This document shows positions 17,878 through 29,170 of a stretch of DNA of 64,000 bases, piece by piece. Origin of the DNA: Mobula hypostoma (taxonomy: Eukaryota); contig NC_086097.1 of the NCBI RefSeq assembly GCF_963921235.1, positions 110,052,001 through 110,116,000 on the forward strand. The letters are read 5' to 3'. Under the pieces are notes generated by a model that was not told the DNA's origin, did not search any database, and saw only the letters and a program-made list of their open reading frames with translations. The position numbers and the translations under genes are program-made. Positions within the stretch are counted from its first letter, which is position 1; every line of letters begins with the position of its first letter.

Positions 17878-19030
17878 TGTCATGGTCCAGTCCGTGAAGT
17901 CCATATTCCGGTTCACGGTCCAGTCCAAGGACCCTTGCTCCAGGTTTTCCTGTCTACCCTGTTTCTGTTCTTATTGAGCACTAATTGAGGCAGCTGATGC
18001 TCGTTGGGGCTGGCTGCATAAATACCTTCAGAGACCAGGGTGTGGCTGCTGGATTGTTCTTGTCCTTACTCCTTGTATCCCTTCCTCTGCCTTCTGTTTC
18101 CTCGTCTGAAGCCCTGCCTTGTCTTGCCGGTAACTCTCACCTCACCTAAAGTTCTCGTCTCGCCCTGCTTTGCCAGAAGCCTTGCCTTGTCTTGCCGGTA
18201 ACTCTCGCCTCACCTGAAGTTCTCGCCTTGCCTTGTATTGCCTGAAGCCTTGCCTTGTCTTTCTGGTAAATCTCGCCTCGTCTCGCCTGCAGTCTTGTCC
18301 TGGAGCCACCCTGTACCCAGCTCCCTTCCTGTCCCTTGCCTCCGCCCAGGTAAGCCAGGCCGTCTTGCTGTTACCTACGGTTGGTTCTGTCCCTTCCTGT
18401 CCCTTGCCTCCGCGCCCTGCCCAGGAGTACCGCGCCCTGCCCAGGAGTACCGAGCCCTGCCCAGGTGAACCGCACCCTGCCCAGGAGGAGCCTGCCTAGC
18501 CTCAAGCCTGAAGACTCCAGCCTCCTGCCTCCTGTCAAGCCTTGCCTCAAGTCTCTAGCCTCTAGCCTCAAGCCTGAGGACTCCAGCCTCCTGCCTCCTG
18601 CCAAGCCTTGTCTCTAGCCTCTAGCTTCAAGCCTGAAGACTCCAGCCTCATGCCTCCTGCCAAGCCTCACCTCAAGACGCTAGCCTCTAGCCTCAAGCCT
18701 GAAGACTCCAGCCTCCTGCCTCCTGCCAAGCCTCGCCTCTAGCCTCAAGCCTGAAGACTCCAACCTTGTCCTGCTTGTCTTGTCTGCCAAGCCTCATCCT
18801 TGCCTAGTTCTGGGGTCCGAGCCAGGGGCAAGACCCAGGTACTGGGACCTTGTCCAGTCTCTGGCTCGGAGTCCAAGCCCGGGCTCCTAGCTTTCTTGTC
18901 CAGTCCTGTTCCGGGTTCCCGGTTTTCATGTCCATGTCCTTGACCTCACCCTGTATCCTAGTCCTGTCCCTAGTACTTCAGTGTCTGTGTCTTGCACTTG
19001 GGTCCGTTCCCAGCCACCCGTCGAATGACA
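17878..19030 (+). mobile_element. Solo LTR (1153 bp, Gypsy-type) with internal tandem expansions
   Basis: TGTCAT...ATGACA termini; 5-bp TSD ATTTC at 17873-17877 and 19031-19035; ATAAATA near 18018. Confidence 0.85.
18498..18770. repeat. Minisatellite inside the solo LTR
   Basis: About 5 copies of GCCTCAAGCCTGAAGACTCCAGCCTCCTGCCTCCTG(C/T)CAAGCC with variable linkers. Confidence 0.85.
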
Positions 19031-19559
19031 ATTTCAGGTGTTATTACCCAATTAAAACTATGTATTAAAGGCCATCAATACTTGAAAATTAGCAAAGTAA
19101 CTGTTCAATAGTAAGTAGTTCACTGGAATCCTTCACCTGCATCTTTATCTCACCTCGGTATGCTCAGTGATCTTGGTCCCCAGGCTTGAACAGAAAGGCT
19201 GTACAAGAGAATATTTCAACAATGGGGCAGGTGAAGTGAAGATGGAAATCGTAAATGATGGGGGATCTTGATCAGTTAGAGAAATGGCCAAGGAGTGAAA
19301 AATGGATTTCAATACAAGATTCATGGATGTTTGATGCCATTTCCAGTACATAAGTGTAAAGGAGAACAAAATTATTGTTACTCCAGATCTAATGCAGCAC
19401 AAAGATACATAATAAAATAAAGAAGACAATAACAAAAACCATAATAAATATAAATACATAAGATAGCCTACATGTATGATTGTATGTCCATAAATCATAA
19501 GGGATACCTACCCAAGAAACTGTTGTAGGAAAGCAGTATCCATCAACAGTGATCCCCAC

Positions 19560-21415
19560 CACTTCAGACACCTCGCTCAGAAGCCTGGAGTGTAGTCCAT
19601 CTGCTCTAGGTGACTTATCTACCTTCAGATCTTTCAGCTTCCTGAGCATTTTCTCCATAGTAATAGCAACTGCATTCACTTCTGCCCCCTGACACTCTTG
19701 AAACTGGCATATAGCTAGTGTCTTCTACAGTGAAGACTGATGCAAAATACTTATTCAGTTCATCCGCTGTTTCCTTGTCCCCCATTACTTCCTCTCCAGC
19801 ATCATTTTCCAGCAGTCCGATATCTCCTATCGTCACTCTTTTATTCTTTATATATCTGAAAAAACCTTCTGGTATCCTCTTTGATACTGTTGACTAGCTT
19901 ACCTTCCTATCTCATCTTATCCATCCATATGGCTTTTTTAGTTGCTTTCAACTGGTTTTTAAAAGCTTGCTAAGCCTCTAACTTCCCATTAAATTTTGCA
20001 CGGTACTGTGATTGTCAATGTGGACCGTAGAGCGAGTTTGTAAATTTGCTGGGAACAAGGAACGTTGAGAATGGCAAAGATGGAGCATGGCAGGAGGGGT
20101 GTGGTACTTGTGGCGGAGAAGTGCCAGAGATGGGGGGGATGGCGCTGTGCAGATACACCAAGTCTTGAGACACCAGGCAAGGTCATTTGATTCCAAACAA
20201 TTGGTTTATTGATCATTACAGAATGTCTCTCTGGTGTTTCCTGCTCCCTCCCCATCACTTCCCCTTTTCCCAACTATGATTCCCCTCTTCCTGTCACCTT
20301 CCCACTCTCAGTCCACAATAGGGATCCATATCAGAATCAGATTTATCATCACTCACATGTATCCTGAAATTTGTATTTTTTTGGAGGCAGCAGCACAGTG
20401 CAATACATACAATTATTACACTACTGTGCAAAAGGTCTTCAGCACTTGAGCAATATATACAGTATGTGTCTATGACTTTTGCACAGTACTGTATATGCTT
20501 TCTGTTTTGCTCCTATGTTGACCTTGGCTTCCTTTGTCAGCACGATTCTGTCATCCTGCCTTTAGAATACTTCTTCTTTGGGACCTACCTATCCTGCACC
20601 TTTCACATTGCTGCTCTGCCATCATCCCCTGCTAGTGACCCTTCCAATCAACTTCAGCCAGCTCCTCTCTCATGCCTCTGTAATTCCCTTTACTCCACTG
20701 TAATATTGATACACGTGACTTTAGCTTCTGGCTCCTGAGGGTTCCTTGACACAACACCCAATCCAGAATAGTCGATCCCCTAATGGGCTCAATCACAAGC
20801 TGCTCGAAAACCTATCTCATAGACATTCTACAAATTCTCTCTCTTGGGATCCAAAATCAACACCAACCTGATTTTCCCAATCTACCTGCATATTGAAATC
20901 CCCTATGACTATTATAACGTTTGAGGGTCGGCATAACATTGTGGCCGAAGGGCCTGTACTGTGCTGTACTATTCGATTACCCTTTCGATGTGCATTTTCT
21001 ATCTCCCAATATAATTTGTAGCCCACATCCTGGCTACTGTTCAGAGGCCCGTATATACTTTAACTCCAGTCAGGGTCATTTTGTCCTTGCAGTTCCTTAC
21101 TTCTACTCACAACAATTCTACATCTTCTGATTGTATGTCACTTCTTTTTAAGGATTGTATTTTTACCAACAGACCCATGCTACCCCCTCTGCCTACCTGC
21201 CTGTCCTTTTCAATACAATGTGTATCCTTGGATGTTAAGCTCCCAACTCTAATCTTCTTTCAACCATGACTCAGTGATGCCCACAACGTTATACCTGCTA
21301 GTCTCTAACAGCATTAAAGATCATCTACCTTATTCTATATAGTGTGTGCATTCGAATATACCACCTTCAGTCCGGTATTCATCATCCTTTTTGATTTTGT
21401 CCCCCTGTTATATAG
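19560..21415 (-). mobile_element. Decayed CR1 LINE (endonuclease to RT region) with small insertions; continues at 25529 to about 25900
   Basis: LKVDKSPRADGLHSRLL, DELNKYFASVFTVED, VIGDFNMQVDWENQ; sequence rejoins across the Gypsy insertion. Confidence 0.8.
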
Positions 21416-22125
21416 TGTAAGGGGGTTTCGACTTTTATGTTACTGCGGAGGTTAATTAAAATGGCATCTTTGTTATGTTAATCTGGGGAATGTGGTTTTG
21501 TTGTGTTAAACGTTGAGAAAGTTTGCGCTAGCAGCTTGTTTTTGTTTAGAGTGTGATAAGAAATATGTTATTAACCAATTGGGATAGTTGTTATGTTTTT
21601 GGTGTATTTGAAGATACTGTATGCGTGGGGTTTTGGGGCAGAAGGCGGGAGAGCGAGACAGAGGATGGACGATGTGCTGTGATGTCCGCTAACGGGGTCG
21701 GACCCTGAGGAGAGCGTTCGGCGAGGAGACGGAGACGGACTCGTGCGGAGCGTCTGGTCGACCACTGTTGGTGGTCCGAGGTGGCCGGTCGAGGTGGTCT
21801 GAGGGGTTGCAGGGTGAAGAAGAAGGTCCTTGAGCTCCAACAGTTTTGTGCACGAAGAGATTGAACTTTGATAAGTGTGGCGCCTTTTATTTTCCTTTCA
21901 TATTTTATTCTCTATTAATTATATATTTCCAGTAATATCTATAAACTGTAAATCATTTAATTGTATCTGGTGTATTGTCTGTTATTTGGGCGGCATGGGG
22001 TACCTCACACAGCATCCAAACAAACTATTACCCAGTTTGCCAGGGCTGAGGGCTGTTTCCCTAGATGACAGCGAGCCGAGCGAACCTGAGGGTGGCCGGG
22101 TGGGGGGGGGGGTTGGGGGGCTACA
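21416..22125 (+). repeat. 5' LTR
   Basis: TGTAAGGGGGTTTCGAC...GGGGCTACA; direct repeat of 24838-25528. Confidence 0.95.
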
Positions 22126-22329
22126 TTGTGGGCTTTGTCGGGGATTGAGTCTGCTGGTATGCAATGTGGGTGCCCTGTTTAAATCTGTAATGTGTGTCTC
22201 TGTGGGTTATTTGCTGGTGATTGCTGGTGGGTGAGGTCTTTGTTCGAGTTCAGACTAGCATTGACGAGTTGGAGGTGGCACTCGGGGCTGTCCATGCTGT
22301 TGGGGAAAGAGAGGAAAGAGTGGTCTGAT

Positions 22330-22620
22330 TTGGAGGTAGGGACTGTGAATAAATGTTCCAGCTCCGGCAGGCTCCGCCTGGCGTTTGGGATAGTGTCCAC
22401 CCCAGGAGGGGCGGAGGCGTGCGAGACATGGGTGGAGCGGATCTCTCAGTTGTTAGATGAGTGGCAGTGCTCGGTTGAGGGAGAGCGACAGGGATTGGTT
22501 GAAAGTTTGAGTAGGCGGGCTGGTGACGGTGTTAGAGCTGTCAGGTTCACTTACACCGTAGTGACAGCTGTCAGTTATTTGAAAGAGGGGGGAAAGTTTT
22601 CAGTGTGTCTTCTCTGGCTA
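22330..22620 (+). pseudogene. PNMA-type Gypsy gag remnant
   Basis: [47 protein letters not shown] resembles the PNMA/Gypsy capsid motif (LRIFSG...FETWLE...EW..SE.EKRRRLLESL). Confidence 0.75.
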
Positions 22621-22819
22621 GGAGGGCGGCTAAATTGCTTGCAGTGCCAGGGGGATCATTTCAGGGGATCAGCCCCTCCTTCAGTTGTTCAGCTGATCAG
22701 AGAGGTGTCAGGAAACTTAGTGGAGGCCCAGTGGGGGAACGGCTTGGGGTCTCTGGGGAAGCACATTCCCAGCAATGTACCGATGAACTTCCGAAAGGAA
22801 AAGACCCTATTCCTGAAGG

Positions 22820-23699
22820 CTTAGAGGGGCCACGCCCCAGGGTGTCGCTATGGATAGAGGGAAGCGATGCTAAAGCTATCCTCGACCCCGGGGCACAGAT
22901 CAAGTTGTTGTACAGTTCGTTTTACAACCGGTGTCTGAAGCATTTATCCTTGACAACCGCAAGGGCACCGGAGGCTTTGGGTACTAGTGGCAGTAGTTAC
23001 CCAGAAGACGATGATTGGTTAATGACCCTGGAGTTCATGGAGGCATTTTCTGGGCACCCAGCGTGTCAAGTTGCTTCTGAGGACATGCATAGCAGCCTTG
23101 AGCCAGTACCGAATTTAAACAAGACCCAGCGGTGGTACGGCTTGGGGAAAGTAGCTGAGGGTGAGACCCTCTTAGTAGATGCTCCGAACTACCACGAGGG
23201 AGGGGAGTTGACCGCTGAAGACACCTCAGTGAGAGAGAGGACGCAGCAACTGGACCCTAGCGGTATGGAAGATGAAGGCAGTGTGTGTGTGGATTATGCG
23301 ATGTGGTTTAATGTGCTGTATCTGAGGAGTGGATGTTGGCAGATCCCGAAGAATGCGGCTGTTGAGCCGAAGACGGCTGTTACTAGTTCCCTAGGATTCT
23401 TCCGATCCGAAAAGATGCCCATGGGCATATCCGGAGCCCCTGCATCCTTCCTGCGGGGCATGAGGAAGACCATGGGGGAAGTGAAGATGTGTGGAGTTTT
23501 GGCGTATGTGGATGACCGCCTAGAGCTTGGACTTGCTTGGGGGGACTATGAGGCAAGGCGAGTGGCTGAGCCCGGGTGACCGAAGTGAAGTGTCAAATGT
23601 GGAGGAGTTTTTGGCCGGAGGAGTTTGGTGCAATGTGAGAAAAATGACCCAACATACCAGTTGAACTTCCTGGTGTTAAGACAGACGGTGGTGGACCGG
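22820..23699 (+). pseudogene. Compacted Gypsy pol remnant (protease, partial RT, partial RNase H)
   Basis: AILDPGAQI (protease); [15 protein letters not shown]...KTA...[12 protein letters not shown]...AYVDD (RT); FGRRSLVQCEKNDPTYQLNFLVLRQTVVD at 23610-23696 (RNase H). Confidence 0.85.
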
Positions 23700-24320
23700 G
23701 GGATAAAAACCCAGGTCGTCAATCTACACAAGGAAGAGAGGGGATTTGCACCACACTGCGGTCATGTACTGATGAATTAATCCAGTAAGAAGAAACAATC
23801 ACCCACCTTTCAAGGGATCAGCAGAAGCTCAAGACATCGATTCAGAACAGATTGGAAGACTTGCAAGTTGGGGAAGATCAAGGAAGTGTTTTGACTAAGG
23901 GCAACAGAAAACCGAGAGCCCAGGGAGGGGAGTTTGTCTACACTTCCGAGGAGGTGAAGAAATGGAGGACAGATCTCAGAAAAGGGAGGCGGGCACTTGA
24001 AAGGAACCTGAAGATGACTATCGCGAGTTTAAATGAAGTGGAAAAACTGAAAGTTGACCTGGAAGACGTCCTCAGGAAGAAACAACCGGAGGCTGAACGT
24101 TCTTTAACTGCTGCTTGTCAGGTCAGGGTGGAAGAAGCTGGTGGGGTAACTGCGTCCCAGACTGAGATGGCCAGGAACCCTGAGTCAGAACTGCTGAGGC
24201 TGTGACGAGAGTTGAAGGAGTCCCCGAAGAAGCTGACGTCTCGACTGCAGGAGGCTGCAGGGGTAGCCCCGGTTAAATGTTTCAGTTTGGAGAAGTTCAA
24301 ACAGCAGCTACCGATCGAAG
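23700..24320 (+). pseudogene. Captured, intronless, internally deleted sarcomeric myosin heavy chain rod fragment (MYH16-like)
   Basis: EETITHL...[16 protein letters not shown]...[45 protein letters not shown], then EAERSL, RVEEAGGVTASQTEMARNPESELLRL*RELKES and [10 protein letters not shown]...[12 protein letters not shown], all in myosin II rod order. Confidence 0.85.
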
Positions 24321-24837
24321 GAATGAGGAAGGATACGGATTCGAAGGATGATGTGCTGCACATGTGGTACATGCTGCCTTTCGCTAACTTCCCCGTGAAT
24401 GAGGAAGAGACCTTTGGCCCTTCTCCCACTGAGTCAGGTGTAGTGGGGAGGGCTAGCTGTGGGCAGTCTGAGTTGCGGCAGGATTGGGAAGGAGGAGAGG
24501 CGGTGCCCTGGACACAGGACTGGGGGCTCCGAGCTGTAGTGGTGGCCTGAGTGAGAGAGGAGTTGGCAAGCAGGCCCGAGGTATCCCTAGTAGTGTCTGA
24601 GCCTTTTGGGTTTAGGTGAGGGAGTACGGAGGTCTCAGAGGGTTAAGAAGCTCCCAGATAGGTTGGCCTATGTAGTGCCCGTGGGACGGGAGTAAGGTCC
24701 ACTGTTTGGGGAGAACTGTCACTGTGTGTATCTGTGTATGTGTGTGTTGTGTGTATGTGTGTGTTGTGTGTCTGCAGGACTGGTTGGCGAGTTATTTAGA
24801 AGTCATGAGGACATGACTTTATTTGGTGGGGGGAGAG

Positions 24838-25528
24838 TGTAAGGGGGTTTCGACTTTTATGTTACTGCAGAGGCTAATTAAAATGGCGTCTTTGTTATGT
24901 TAATCTGGGGAATGCAGCTTTGTTGTTTTAAACGCTGAGAATATTTGCGCTAGCAGCTTGTTTTGGTTTAGAGTGTGATAAGAAATATGTTATTAACCAA
25001 TTGGGATAGTTGTTATGTTTTTGGTGTATTTGAAGATACTGTATGCGCGGGGTTTTGGGGCAGAAGGCGGGAGAGCGAGACAGAGGATGGACGATGTGCT
25101 GTGATGTCCGCTAACGGGGTCGGACCCCGAGGAGGGCGTTCGGCGAGGAGACAGAGACGGACTCGTGTGGAGCGTCTGGTCGACCACCGTTGGTAGTCCC
25201 AGGCGACCGGTCGAGGTGGTCTGAGGGGTTGCAGGGTGAAGAAGAAGGTCCTTGAGCTCCAACGGTTTTGTGCACGAAGAGATTGAACTTTGATAAGTGT
25301 GGCGCCTTTTATTTTCCTTTTATATTTTATTCTCTCTTAATTAGTTCCAGTAATATTTATAAACTGTAAATCATTTAATCGTATCTGGTGTATTGTCTGT
25401 TATTTGGGTGGGGTGGGGTACATCACACAGCATCCACAAAAACGAATTACCCAGTTTGCCGGGGCCGAAGGCTGTTTTCCTAGACGACAGCGAGCCGAGC
25501 GAACCTGAGGGTGGCCGGGGGGGCTACA
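24838..25528 (+). repeat. 3' LTR
   Basis: Direct repeat of 21416-22125, preceded by PPT GGTGGGGGGAGAG. Confidence 0.95.
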
Positions 25529-25959
25529 ATTGCAACTCATCGCAATGACAGCAATTTTACTGTATCATCTGCCTGTCCTTCTTGACAGTCTCACTACACA
25601 CTGCCTCTGCCTACTGCCCAGCTGCCCCCTCCTCAGCCCTATCACTCAGTTTTTCACTTCCCTGCCAAATTAGTTTAAGCTCTCCCCAACAGTTCTAGCA
25701 AACCTGCCTTAAGTTTATTGGTCCCCTCAGGTTCAGGAAGGTATGACTCGTCCCTTTCGTATATTTCATATTCCACCGAAGAGATTCCAATGATCCAGAG
25801 ATCTGAAACCCTGCCCTTGCACCAGTTCCTCAGCCACGCATTCACCTGTTAAATCATCCTATTCTTACCCTCACTGGCATATAATCTAGGTAGTAATCCA
25901 GAAGATTCAAACATGAGGGAAGAAATGAGAATCTGGACTTTCTCCTAAAATCCACAAAT

Positions 25960-27200
25960 TCAGTTCATATCATGTAATACAAAGAAACTGCTGAAAACAC
26001 TGAGTTCAGTAAAGATCATGGGGCCTGACAACATCTCAGCTGTAATATTGAAAACATGCACACCAAAACTAGCTGCAGTTTAGCCAAGCTCTTCCAGTAC
26101 AGTTACAATATTGGTAACTACTCAAGAATATGAAAATGGCATATCGTTTTCATAAAAGCTGAATGAATTCAATTACCACACAGTCAGTCTCCCCTCAATT
26201 AGCAACAAAGTGATAATGTCATTTGCAGTACTATCCAGTGCCACATATTCAATAACCTGCTCACCATGCCCAGTCTGGATTTTGCCAGGATCATTCCATT
26301 CCAGACATCATGATGGCCCTAAGCCAAACAGCAAAGAAAAGCTGAGGTGAACATGATCATCCTATCCATCAAGAAAGCATTTGAGTGAATACGGTATTGA
26401 AAAACTCCGATAACACTGAACATCATGGGGAATCCACTTCACTACCGGAGTCAAACCGTAGACAGAGATTGTTGTGGTTGTGAGAAGACAATCATCCACA
26501 CCAGGACATCAGAGCACAAGTTCATCAGAGCAGCGTCCCTAGTCCGTCCATCTACGGCAGCTTCACCAGGACCATATTTCTATCACAACGTCAGAACTGC
26601 AAACAATTTCCAAGGAGAGAGAATTAATTCCCTGATCTTGATATTTAATGGCATATCATCGAACATCAAACACCACCACGTCAGTATCCTGAGAGTTACT
26701 GTTGAACAATCTGTCTAGCCACAGAAATACTACGTCCTTAAGAGCAGGTCAAAGGCTGGGAACCCTGGGGCAAATGATTCACGTCCTTGAGAACTCAAAA
26801 CACGTCCACCACTTACACTGCACATCATGAACATAACACAGGAATAGTTCCCTCTACCTGCCTTGATAGATGCAGCTCCAACAACAGAGAAGAAACTCCA
26901 CAACATCCAAGACAATCCAATTCATTTCACTGACATCACATCCCCTCTAAACATTTTTTCTTTCTGTGCAAAGTGGCTCCAAACTGTGCCATATACTCAA
27001 TGACCTACAGTTATTCAGTCACTCTGAAGGTATCCCTCCAACCCTAGATCTCCAACACCAAGAAGGAAACAGGCTAAAGATACAAATTACAGCTACCGGC
27101 ATGTTCTCCTCCTAGCCCTACACCATCCAGACTTGGCAATGTATTGCTCCTTCTTTATCATTGCAAGTTCTCATTCTCAATCTGATTCTTTTACAACAAT
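25960..27200 (+). mobile_element. Ancient CR1/L2-group LINE RT remnant
   Basis: KIMGPDNISAVILKTCTPKLA segment and decayed downstream RT motifs. Confidence 0.6.
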
Positions 27201-27989
27201 TGTATCAAGCAAAACTGGGTGTATGGGGTGTATAGGGAGGAGTGGCACCTCTGGTTCACGTATCCAGTCTGGGGAAGCTCACTCATCTCTGGTCTTCACC
27301 CGACACTCAGCTCTCACCTGTGGCTCCAAAGTAGCTGTTGGCCTATGACAATGGCTGCACCCCGGTACACCACTTTGACCGGTGAGGCAAACTAGGTGAG
27401 GGTAGTCGGCGGGCCTCATACCCCAGTGAGACCGGGACATGCTTGTCCTAGCATGTGAAGTCAGCTCCAGCAAACTGGGTAGATGCGAACCAACGGTGGT
27501 TCTGCAATACTGTGTGGAGAGCAAAATGCATGATGAGGCACAGAAGAAGTCATGTGGTCATCCATTGTAACCAAGGAGGACCACAGTTGTGATGACTACT
27601 CAAACCAGAGTCATCCGGATGTCCGAGGTTGAGAGAATGGAATCACCCCATTTCAAAATGCTTTTCCATTTTAAAAACTCTCCCGTGCAGGCTTCCTGTC
27701 ATTGTTGGATACAGCAGACAACTACCATCATGCAAATACCATTAACTAATGCTAACCACACAGACCCCAACCTAAACACAAAGTTCCAGCCATTCCCTAT
27801 CCTAAACTATTAAACATGATGCCAAACATTTCGAATTCCAAACTATAAAACATACTGTAAGTCTAGTCTTTCAGAAGTCCAACCATTGAACAGTTGTCTA
27901 ATATTCAGAATATCAAACCATTAAATATAATGCCAATATTCAGATTCCAATCATTTGGTTCAATGACAAAAATGCTAAGCTATTAACTT

Positions 27990-29170
27990 ATTTGGCTGAC
28001 TGGTCTTATAACAACAACCTTTCACTCAGTGTCAAGGACACGACCCACCCAGCCAACGCACTTTTCGTCCCTCTTCCCTCCGGGAGAAGGCTCAGGAGCT
28101 TGAAGACTCGTACGACCAGATTTGGGAACAGCTTCTTTCCAACTGTGATAAGACTGCTGAACGGATCCTGACCCGGATCTGGGTCGTACCCTCCAAATAT
28201 CCAGACCTGCCTCTCAATTTTTTTGCACTACCTTACTTTCCATTTTTCTATTTTCTATTTATGATTCATAATTTAAATTTTTAATATTTACTATCGATTT
28301 GTAATCCAGGGAGCAGGAAGTGCAGAATCAAATATCGCTGTGATGATTGTATGTTCTAGTATCAATTATTTGGCGACAATAAAGTATAAAGTATAAAGTA
28401 TGTCAGCAAGACCAAGGAACTGATTGTAGACTTCAGGAGAGGGGAACCAGAGGTACATGAGCAAGTCCTCATCAAAGGATCACCTCACTGGAGGATCAGA
28501 GGTGGAGAGGGTAAGCAACTTTAAATTCCTGAGTGTTACTATTCCAGTAGCACTAGGTGTTACTGAGTCTTGGACTCAGCACATAGGCGCAATTGCGAAG
28601 AAAGCACCTCTATTTCCTTAGGAGTCTGTGGAAATTCAGCATAACATCTAAAACTTTGGCAAACTTTGATAGAAGTACAGTGGAGAGTGTATTGACTGTA
28701 GCATCACAGCCTGGTATGGAAATACCAATCCCTTTGAATGGCATCATACTATAAATGATGGTGGATTCAGCCCAGTACGTCACAGGTAAAACCCTCCCAA
28801 TGCTTAGGCACATCTACGTGAAAGCTTGTCATAGGCAAGAGTATCCATCAGCAGAGATTCCCACCACCCAGGTCATGCTCTCTTCTTGCTGCTGCCATCA
28901 GGTAGAAGATACAGGAGCCTCAGAACTCATGCCACCAGGTTCACAAGCATTTACTATTCCTCAGTCAGCTGGCTCTTGATTAAAAGGGGTTAACGACACT
29001 CACTTGCCCCATTATTGAAATGTTCCTACAACCAATGACCTCAATTTAAGAACTCTTTATCTCAGTATCTCATGTTCACATTATTTATTGCTATTTATTT
29101 ATATTTGTATCTGCACAGTTTGTTGCCTTCTGCACTAAGGTAGATCTTTCATTGATCCTGTTATAGTTAC
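27990..29170 (+). mobile_element. Rex1/Babar-like 3' fragments (one nested in another)
   Basis: VSKTKELIVDFRR, VERVSNFKFLSV; inner copy about 28030-28400 ends in (TAAAGTA)n. Confidence 0.75.

Follow-up and report, generated by a model that had tools for sequence, protein, structure and literature searches.

In a 64,000-nt stretch of the genome of the ray Mobula hypostoma (contig NC_086097.1, positions 110,052,001 to 110,116,000; here called the window), a myosin-derived sequence at 23690-24340 on the + strand sits inside a single 4.1-kb LTR element. We consider it very probable that this element is a decayed, non-autonomous Ty3/Gypsy copy whose ancestor captured a spliced MYH16-like cDNA through a template switch and was then spread by proteins supplied in trans.

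The element is bounded by two LTRs, each beginning with TG and ending with CA and both on the + strand like all of the element's features given below: a 5' LTR of 710 nt (21416-22125), with a poly-G expansion near its end, and a 3' LTR of 691 nt (24838-25528). The pair differs at 45 of 690 aligned sites, a divergence of 6.5%. An earlier note made from the sequence alone had described paired LTRs with a target-site duplication; the LTRs are real, but the duplication of the window copy is imperfect, with ATAG at 21412-21415 and ATTG at 25529-25532 agreeing at three of four bases. The primer-binding-site region (22126-22147) is decayed in the window copy. A PBS-like 18-mer is kept in four of 13 copies and decayed in the other nine, and copies L033, L034, L038 and L044 have TGGGGGCTCGTCCGGGAT, which we take to be the tRNA-Pro primer site of murine leukaemia virus, three bases past the 5' LTR. 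At the opposite end of the internal region, a polypurine tract (GGTGGGGGGAGAG, 24825-24837) abuts the 3' LTR; its core GGGGAGAG is kept in the window copy and in every one of the 12 other full copies, with a one-base difference further upstream in two copies.

On both sides of the element the window contains open-frame fragments, at 19389-21059 on the − strand and 25949-28980 on the + strand (for example VIIVIGDFNMQVDW, KSPRADGLHSRLL and IMGPDNISAVILKTC), which presumably resemble LINE endonuclease and RT. A separate region at 18100-18900 holds repetitive proline-/serine-rich frames on both strands, in which ..SSLKPEDSSLLPPAKP.. is repeated, and this suggests a tandem repeat.

We compared the internal 2.7 kb of the element with 16 Gypsy Pol proteins, each with the Pfam domains of RT, RT_RNaseH and integrase (PF00078, PF17917/PF17919, PF17921, PF00665). 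A gag remnant, a 213-aa open frame at 22183-22824 with a zinc-knuckle-like CLQCQGDH at 22636-22659, comes first; the gag-equivalent part of P0004, a protein of the ray Hypanus, has a weak match to PNMA, which is Gypsy gag-derived (E 0.004). It is followed by a protease remnant (22800-23000, with the motif at 22848-22898) that was detected by tblastn with the Gypsy Pol protein P0097 (E 3e-6) and whose active-site triplet is DPG in the window copy and DTG in family B, a sister family discussed below. The RT remnant (23286-23558; SGCWQI at 23328-23345, YVDD at 23505-23516) was matched by 15 of the 16 Pol proteins, with a best E of 5e-14. The RT is fuller in P0004 and in family B, and next to these the window copy has lost the N-terminal palm/fingers part; the remnant scores weakly against Pfam RVT_1 (E 0.0028); the match of the element RT to the Ty3 RT 4ol8 is also weak, at E 0.07 only. 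The C-terminal remnant of RNase H (23607-23689, the protein match extending to 23699) ends at the cargo junction. It was matched by one of the 16 proteins (P0100, residues 646-676, 42% identity, E 1.7e-4), and its stretch 23642-23677 can be aligned to the RNase H portion of family B. The Gypsy order of protease, RT and RNase H is therefore kept in the window copy. With the same 16 proteins no trace of an integrase was found past the RNase H end, so the pol order beyond that point cannot be read. The Gypsy backbone proposed in the earlier note is borne out by these matches, and the window element is a defective Gypsy derivative.

Between the cargo and the polypurine tract lies a tail of ~480 nt (24341-24824) with a (TG)n-rich stretch at ~24720-24770. 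The part of it encoding GVRRSQRVKKLPDRL (24621-24665) had been taken for a Gypsy C-terminal tail, an attribution that gained no support: neither this part nor the rest of the tail matched any of the 16 Gypsy Pol proteins at E<1e-3. The tail is conserved in family B (76% at the nucleotide level) and in Hypanus proteins. Within it, the motif VWYMLPFA(N/D)FP..EE..GPSP.ESG (24353-24439; also present in L058, P0004 and P0117) is the best-conserved part of the frame between ray genera, at ~80% versus 57% overall, and matches neither myosin nor the 16 Gypsy Pol proteins. Pfam searches with pieces of the window and with the 637-aa ORF of copy L035 returned weak RVT_1 and chance coiled-coil families only.

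The cargo lies in sense orientation at the position of the missing integrase. In the window copy, an ORF at 23789-24205 (+) encodes 138 aa and is followed by a second at 24206-24550 (+). Searched against the PDB, the 138-aa piece matches rod residues 989-1090 of Myosin-4/Myosin-7 (E 6.2e-7), with a second, weak stretch on RLEEAGGATSAQIEM (~ residues 1150-1175), and all 11 sequences matched at E<=1 are class II muscle myosin heavy chains. The myosin similarity of this stretch is well beyond chance. The translations quoted in the earlier note are present on the + strand where it had placed them; its limits for the myosin segment, 23700-24320, do enclose myosin sequence but proved slightly too narrow, as the segment runs from ~23690 to ~24340. 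The window copy has no match to Pfam Myosin_tail and the cargo contains no motor domain; the cargo is a fragment derived from a class II sarcomeric myosin gene, not such a gene itself.

Along the cargo, rod segments follow one another in colinear order. Block 1 (23690-23755, rod ~895-925), aligned with KVNLELETQV..EEI of family B, is shifted in frame by a 7-nt deletion after 23725. Block 2 (23756-23932, rod ~975-1033), the equivalent of exon A, contains a TAA stop at 23786-23788 and is joined seamlessly to block 3 (23933-24081, rod ~1034-1082), the equivalent of exon B, which stops at the exon end. Exon C is missing from the window copy. Pieces of exon D (EAER; RVEEAGGVTASQTEM..RELKES) make up block 4 (24083-24223), which has a TGA stop at 24203-24205, and the cargo ends with block 5 (24224-24340, rod ~1388-1432), whose counterpart in L035 (P0001 residues 514-559) matches the MYH7(1361-1425) chimera 4xa3 with an E of 0.0028. 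The jump in the rod from 1180 to 1390 is common to the window copy and the family B copy L057. At the cargo ends, where 23680-23700 and 24330-24360 were read, there is neither a poly(A) or A-rich tract nor a LINE-type duplication. When set against the open frame of L035, the window copy has stops at 23577, 23586, 23786 and 24203; with these four stops, the 7-nt deletion and the divergence of its LTRs, it is a decayed copy.

The window element belongs to a large family, which we call family A. A 621-nt query gave 840 first-look candidates in the 3.48-Gb genome, and 40 of 40 scored candidates, spread over many contigs, are 93-94% identical to it over the full 621 nt. A CpG-free 32-nt cargo word, with up to three mismatches allowed, has 490 genomic matches (244 + 246) versus none (0 + 0) for its reversed control. 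Another 19 loci were compared with the window, and every one of them is colinear with it across the whole internal region and the 3' LTR, with 92-93.5% identity; similarity ends between the window-equivalent positions 25519 and 25538, at the LTR end. In each of the 32 loci looked at, the segment is enclosed by LTRs. The 12 copies read whole are 4021-4162 nt long and each has two LTRs. Perfect and mutually different 4-bp target duplications flank 11 of them, and that of the remaining copy, L039, agrees at three of four bases, as in the window copy. LTR-LTR divergence ranges from 2.7 to 8.2% (median 4.8%, 13 copies); the family A insertions are old. The suggestion that the myosin segment had been mobilised as cargo is upheld by these hundreds of copies with independent target duplications.

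A search with a host myosin exon brought up copies that are more myosin-like than those of family A, and two of them, L057 and L058, were read. These members of family B are ~80% identical in nucleotide sequence to the window and colinear with it across gag, protease, RT, cargo and tail; their RT is fuller than that of the window copy, and they share with family A both the myosin-to-tail junction and the 1180-to-1390 jump. Their cargo starts after the Gypsy RNase H end motif ..YRPGSRNIDVDVLSR. The family B ORF P0006 aligns with residues 894-1092 of Myosin-4 in a single ungapped alignment of 199 residues (E 8e-29), and the cargo then continues with exon C/D sequence and RLEEAGGVTASQMEM before the jump and the tail that are also seen in family A. 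Exon C is still present in L058. Within 360 nt past the tail of L058 there is no resemblance to the window LTR. With matches at E 6e-7 for the window and E 8e-29 for family B, the protein search agrees with the earlier claim of colinear sarcomeric rod blocks.

Family B also allowed the type of myosin to be addressed. Among 106 database matches to its cargo at E<=0.001, the top 18 places are taken by myosin-16(-like) or unnamed myosins of fish, with 120-138 bits, versus 109 bits at most for fast, cardiac and 7B myosins; the N-terminal 70 residues of the query match Gypsy Pol proteins. Pfam Myosin_tail_1 scores 19.1 bits in family B against a cut-off of 38.1. In a tree of 22 rows, the cargo and all MYH16 sequences fall on one side of a branch with an SH-aLRT of 95. 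Constraining the cargo to group with chondrichthyan MYH16 was not rejected (p-AU 0.17), placing it inside shark MYH16 was weakly rejected (p-AU 0.036) and placing it with other vertebrate sarcomeric myosins was borderline rejected (p-AU 0.052). Because of the database ranking and the tree, an MYH16 affinity of the cargo, which had been suggested from its motifs, is favoured, though given its long branch not proven.

The cargo lacks the introns of host myosin genes. In the host fast-type myosin gene L051, four junctions in this region are occupied by GT..AG introns of ~93, 94, 381 and 106 nt; family B reads through all four positions uninterrupted, and the window copy reads through the junction of exons A and B (23932|23933), its block 3 ending at the end of exon B. 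A closer relative of the cargo was found with a Narcine gene model as query, which gave one exon-sized match, of 87% identity, at C68:14612355. The host exon at C68:14612358-14612503 is 146 nt long, with a pyrimidine tract and AG before it and GTGAGT after it. Over the exon, its identity is 93.3% to L057 and 91.9% to L058; with the window the identity is 83.6%, measured over 134 nt. No further similarity to the element occurs within 860 nt on either side, and both flanking introns, each longer than 860 nt, are absent from the cargo. Since similarity stops at the ends of the exon, the cargo came from spliced mRNA, as had been argued in the earlier note. The one exon read, with its 146 nt, points to a transcript of the C68 host gene or of its ancestor as the probable source.

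Other candidates for a source or relative were set aside. The fast-MYH cluster is paralogous: tblastn with the window cargo against 24 host myosin-tail loci matched just two exons, at 32% identity. A genome search with shark MYH16 gave no rod exon above 70% identity among the 24 scored of 4848 candidates, but the reading that this genome has no MYH16 gene is ruled out by the exon at C68:14.61 Mb. Five loci with long intron-free Myosin_tail_1 matches and several stops (L021-L025, at C18:48745523-48746731, C50:30689110, C184:304888, C157:172388 and C21:138691427) have no blastn or Gypsy match, are 30% identical to a fast myosin and are unrelated to the element; such loci could represent retrocopies or else long exons from other genes for coiled-coil proteins. 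An 87-nt exon-sized match at G000:C36:112729804-112729890 on the − strand is 66% identical to the second half of fast-myosin exon A. Its length is that of a 29-aa block that differs between Narcine isoforms, and it possibly represents an exon from some other divergent myosin gene.

The host exon also permits a comparison of the two families. Over its 146 nt, the two family B copies have three differences from the host in common, and 7 and 9 others are private to one copy each. In family A, 27 of the 146 positions depart from the host in no fewer than 18 of 20 copies, and just two of the 27 recur in B. The 23 changes that can be polarised to the A lineage comprise 14 transitions and 9 transversions and are distributed 8, 6 and 9 over the codon positions; an editing signature in this fast lineage is ruled out, as no substitution type dominates. 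On the evidence of this one exon, family B may consist of old copies made soon after the capture, and family A may descend from a lineage that stayed active and changed several times faster than host DNA. With A far from the host exon and B near it, a single capture needs either such a much faster A lineage or a later, second exchange between family B and host mRNA, which would account for the same figures.

Proteins colinear with the fusion are annotated in other rays as well. One from Mobula birostris is 92% identical to the L035 ORF, others are found in M. hypostoma and Hemitrygon akajei, and that of Hypanus sabinus, 729 aa long, is 57% identical in aligned columns and has deletions of its own. 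In a tree of their own these ray fusion proteins nest with family A, and two Narcine models lie at the base. The Narcine isoforms differ by the 29-aa block mentioned above, which ends at the A|B junction, and one of them runs into non-myosin sequence right past exon C; because of these isoform differences, we read the Narcine models, as gene models, as probable representatives of the intron-bearing host-gene lineage. Several public models (P0004 from Hypanus sabinus, P0114, P0117, P0121 and P0123) are colinear with the gag-PR-RT-cargo-tail frame and carry names such as 'transmembrane protein 192 isoform X1' (P0004), 'putative uncharacterized protein MYH16' and 'myosin heavy chain, striated muscle-like'. 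Such models are likely to be artefacts of annotation.

The presence of long frames raises the question of whether the fusion is more than a passenger. L035 has a frame of 637 aa that runs from protease through RT and cargo into the tail without a stop, and open frames of up to 832 aa surround the cargo in other copies. Each of 20 family A copies carries 0-4 stops and 0-7 frame-shifting indels, L035 alone being open throughout; no stop is common to all 20, and the master frame was therefore open. One alternative holds that this fusion frame, composed of a dead protease, a dead RT, a myosin coiled coil and the tail, is translated and kept by selection across ray lineages, possibly as a multimerising scaffold or simply as an open frame protecting the RNA against nonsense-mediated decay. 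In its favour, the frame has come open through more than 10% sequence change, including the 23 polarised changes in 146 nt of the A lineage, and random substitution rarely has this outcome: at 15.8% substitution the 637-codon frame stayed open in 0 of 4000 runs and the cargo alone in 1.6%, and at 10% the whole ORF stayed open in 0.13% of runs and the cargo alone in 6.6%. These figures, together with the frames, hint that, in the active lineage, selection favoured a frame without interruptions. The amino-acid sequence, however, speaks against such a function. Nei-Gojobori dN/dS across the 20 family A copies is 0.67 in the true frame versus 0.60 and 0.70 in the shifted frames, and when the cargo is compared across families A and B the ratio is 0.75-0.80 versus 0.53-0.78 off-frame; only the cargo within family A is somewhat lower, at 0.51 versus 0.70 and 0.69. 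As the true frame resembles its off-frame controls, there is no clear amino-acid constraint. Moreover, the A-lineage changes are even over codon positions, the protease triplet and the RT palm are broken, and the divergence estimate comes from a single exon. We therefore regard a selected, translated fusion as improbable; judged by its substitutions, the cargo shows no sign of protein-level function and appears to behave as a passenger.

Two further readings concern how the myosin segment came to lie where it does. A LINE-mediated processed pseudogene that landed inside a Gypsy element and was co-copied with it would also be intron-free, as the cargo is, and the fragments flanking the element in the window appear LINE-like by their motifs. 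Yet 24330-24360 holds no A-rich tract and the cargo is not bracketed by a duplication, the cargo lacks both ends of the mRNA and makes an internal jump, and in both families the segment is sense, in frame with pol and exactly in place of integrase. This pattern is that of the LTR-mediated retrocopies of Tan et al. (2016, PMC5131818), as far as the parts of that paper drawn on here describe them, and a LINE origin is accordingly very unlikely. A merely generic coiled-coil resemblance, or an overlapping genomic myosin gene, could be thought of in view of the missing Pfam Myosin_tail match in the window and the sub-threshold score in family B, but is refuted by the 92-93% nucleotide identity of family B to a host myosin exon, by the ungapped 199-residue alignment to Myosin-4, by the location between LTRs at every one of the 32 loci, by the ~490 or more occurrences of the segment, and by the lack of splice sites or introns in the segment.

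Capture by a Gypsy element is thus the reading we favour, and we propose the following sequence of events. Reverse transcription would have switched from element RNA, just behind RNase H, to a spliced MYH16-like mRNA and switched back near the 3' end of the element, so that integrase was replaced by a sense, in-frame myosin rod cDNA. The ancestral cargo would have covered approximately residues 890-1180 plus 1390-1430, and the junction and jump common to both families are consistent with a single capture event. The chimera would have kept its LTRs, primer-binding site and polypurine tract, and could therefore have been packaged, reverse-transcribed and integrated with proteins provided in trans. 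Autonomous Gypsy relatives, which are abundant in the genome, would be the likely providers: a 90-aa piece of the family B RT gave 15,520 first-look Gypsy relatives, and among 150 of these that were scored, 11 have 74-79% identity to that RT and sit within open frames of 1000 aa or more. The Gypsy population of this genome is very large. The chimera split into at least two families; it has reached hundreds of copies here and occurs also in other myliobatiform rays.

In acutely transforming retroviruses, a spliced host gene replaces part of pol or env and the virus becomes helper-dependent. The ray element differs from these in being endogenous and Gypsy-type, with spread through the germ line, and in that a fragment of a structural coiled coil, under no apparent selection for an activity of its own, makes up its cargo. 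LTR-mediated retroposition of host mRNA has been documented in animals (Tan et al. 2016, Genome Res 26:1663, PMC5131818), and the cases given in the parts of that paper used here, from fly and mosquito as well as zebrafish, chicken, mouse and human, are young and single or few-copy. Like the ray element, these retrocopies consist of intron-free host mRNA inside a discontinuous LTR element, without poly(A), and are often in frame and sense and capable of renewed retroposition as a non-autonomous element. Unlike them, the ray chimera has at least ~490 copies, forms families ~20% apart and occurs in several ray genera. Bs1 of maize, as related in the same source, resembles it as an LTR element with pieces of cellular exons and common switch points in all copies, but is a plant element with 1-5 copies and three parental genes, compared with one parental gene and hundreds of copies in a cartilaginous fish. 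A Repbase survey records that transposons, LTR elements included, take in host gene fragments (Abrusan et al. 2013, PMC3597677); its main text, the portion drawn on here, has 0 occurrences of 'myosin' or 'coiled'.

In the literature on retrotransposon capture of myosin or MYH16, at the level of listings and abstracts, we found no description of such a cargo. The earlier note's statement that the cargo was undescribed stands to that extent, but the general mechanism has been described by Tan et al. (PMC5131818, in the parts used here). As the structure fits LTR-mediated retroposition, the mechanism is known; the novelty lies in the member itself, with its host clade, its cargo, its copy number and its persistence across ray genera. 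We interpret the element as a product of LTR-mediated retroposition followed by an unusually large secondary amplification.

For annotation, the practical consequence is that ray gene models named after MYH16, striated muscle myosin or transmembrane protein 192 are probably artefacts of this kind. If the less probable reading of a selected fusion frame were true, a piece of the myosin rod would have been recruited by a retrotransposon as a multimerising module or an RNA-shielding frame that persisted across ray lineages. As a family, the element is a clear cartilaginous-fish example of an LTR retrotransposon spreading a spliced host mRNA beyond a one-off retrocopy. The secondary amplification of such chimeras becomes measurable in it, and the older family B and the younger family A offer a natural comparison of the evolutionary rates of an element lineage and a host gene.
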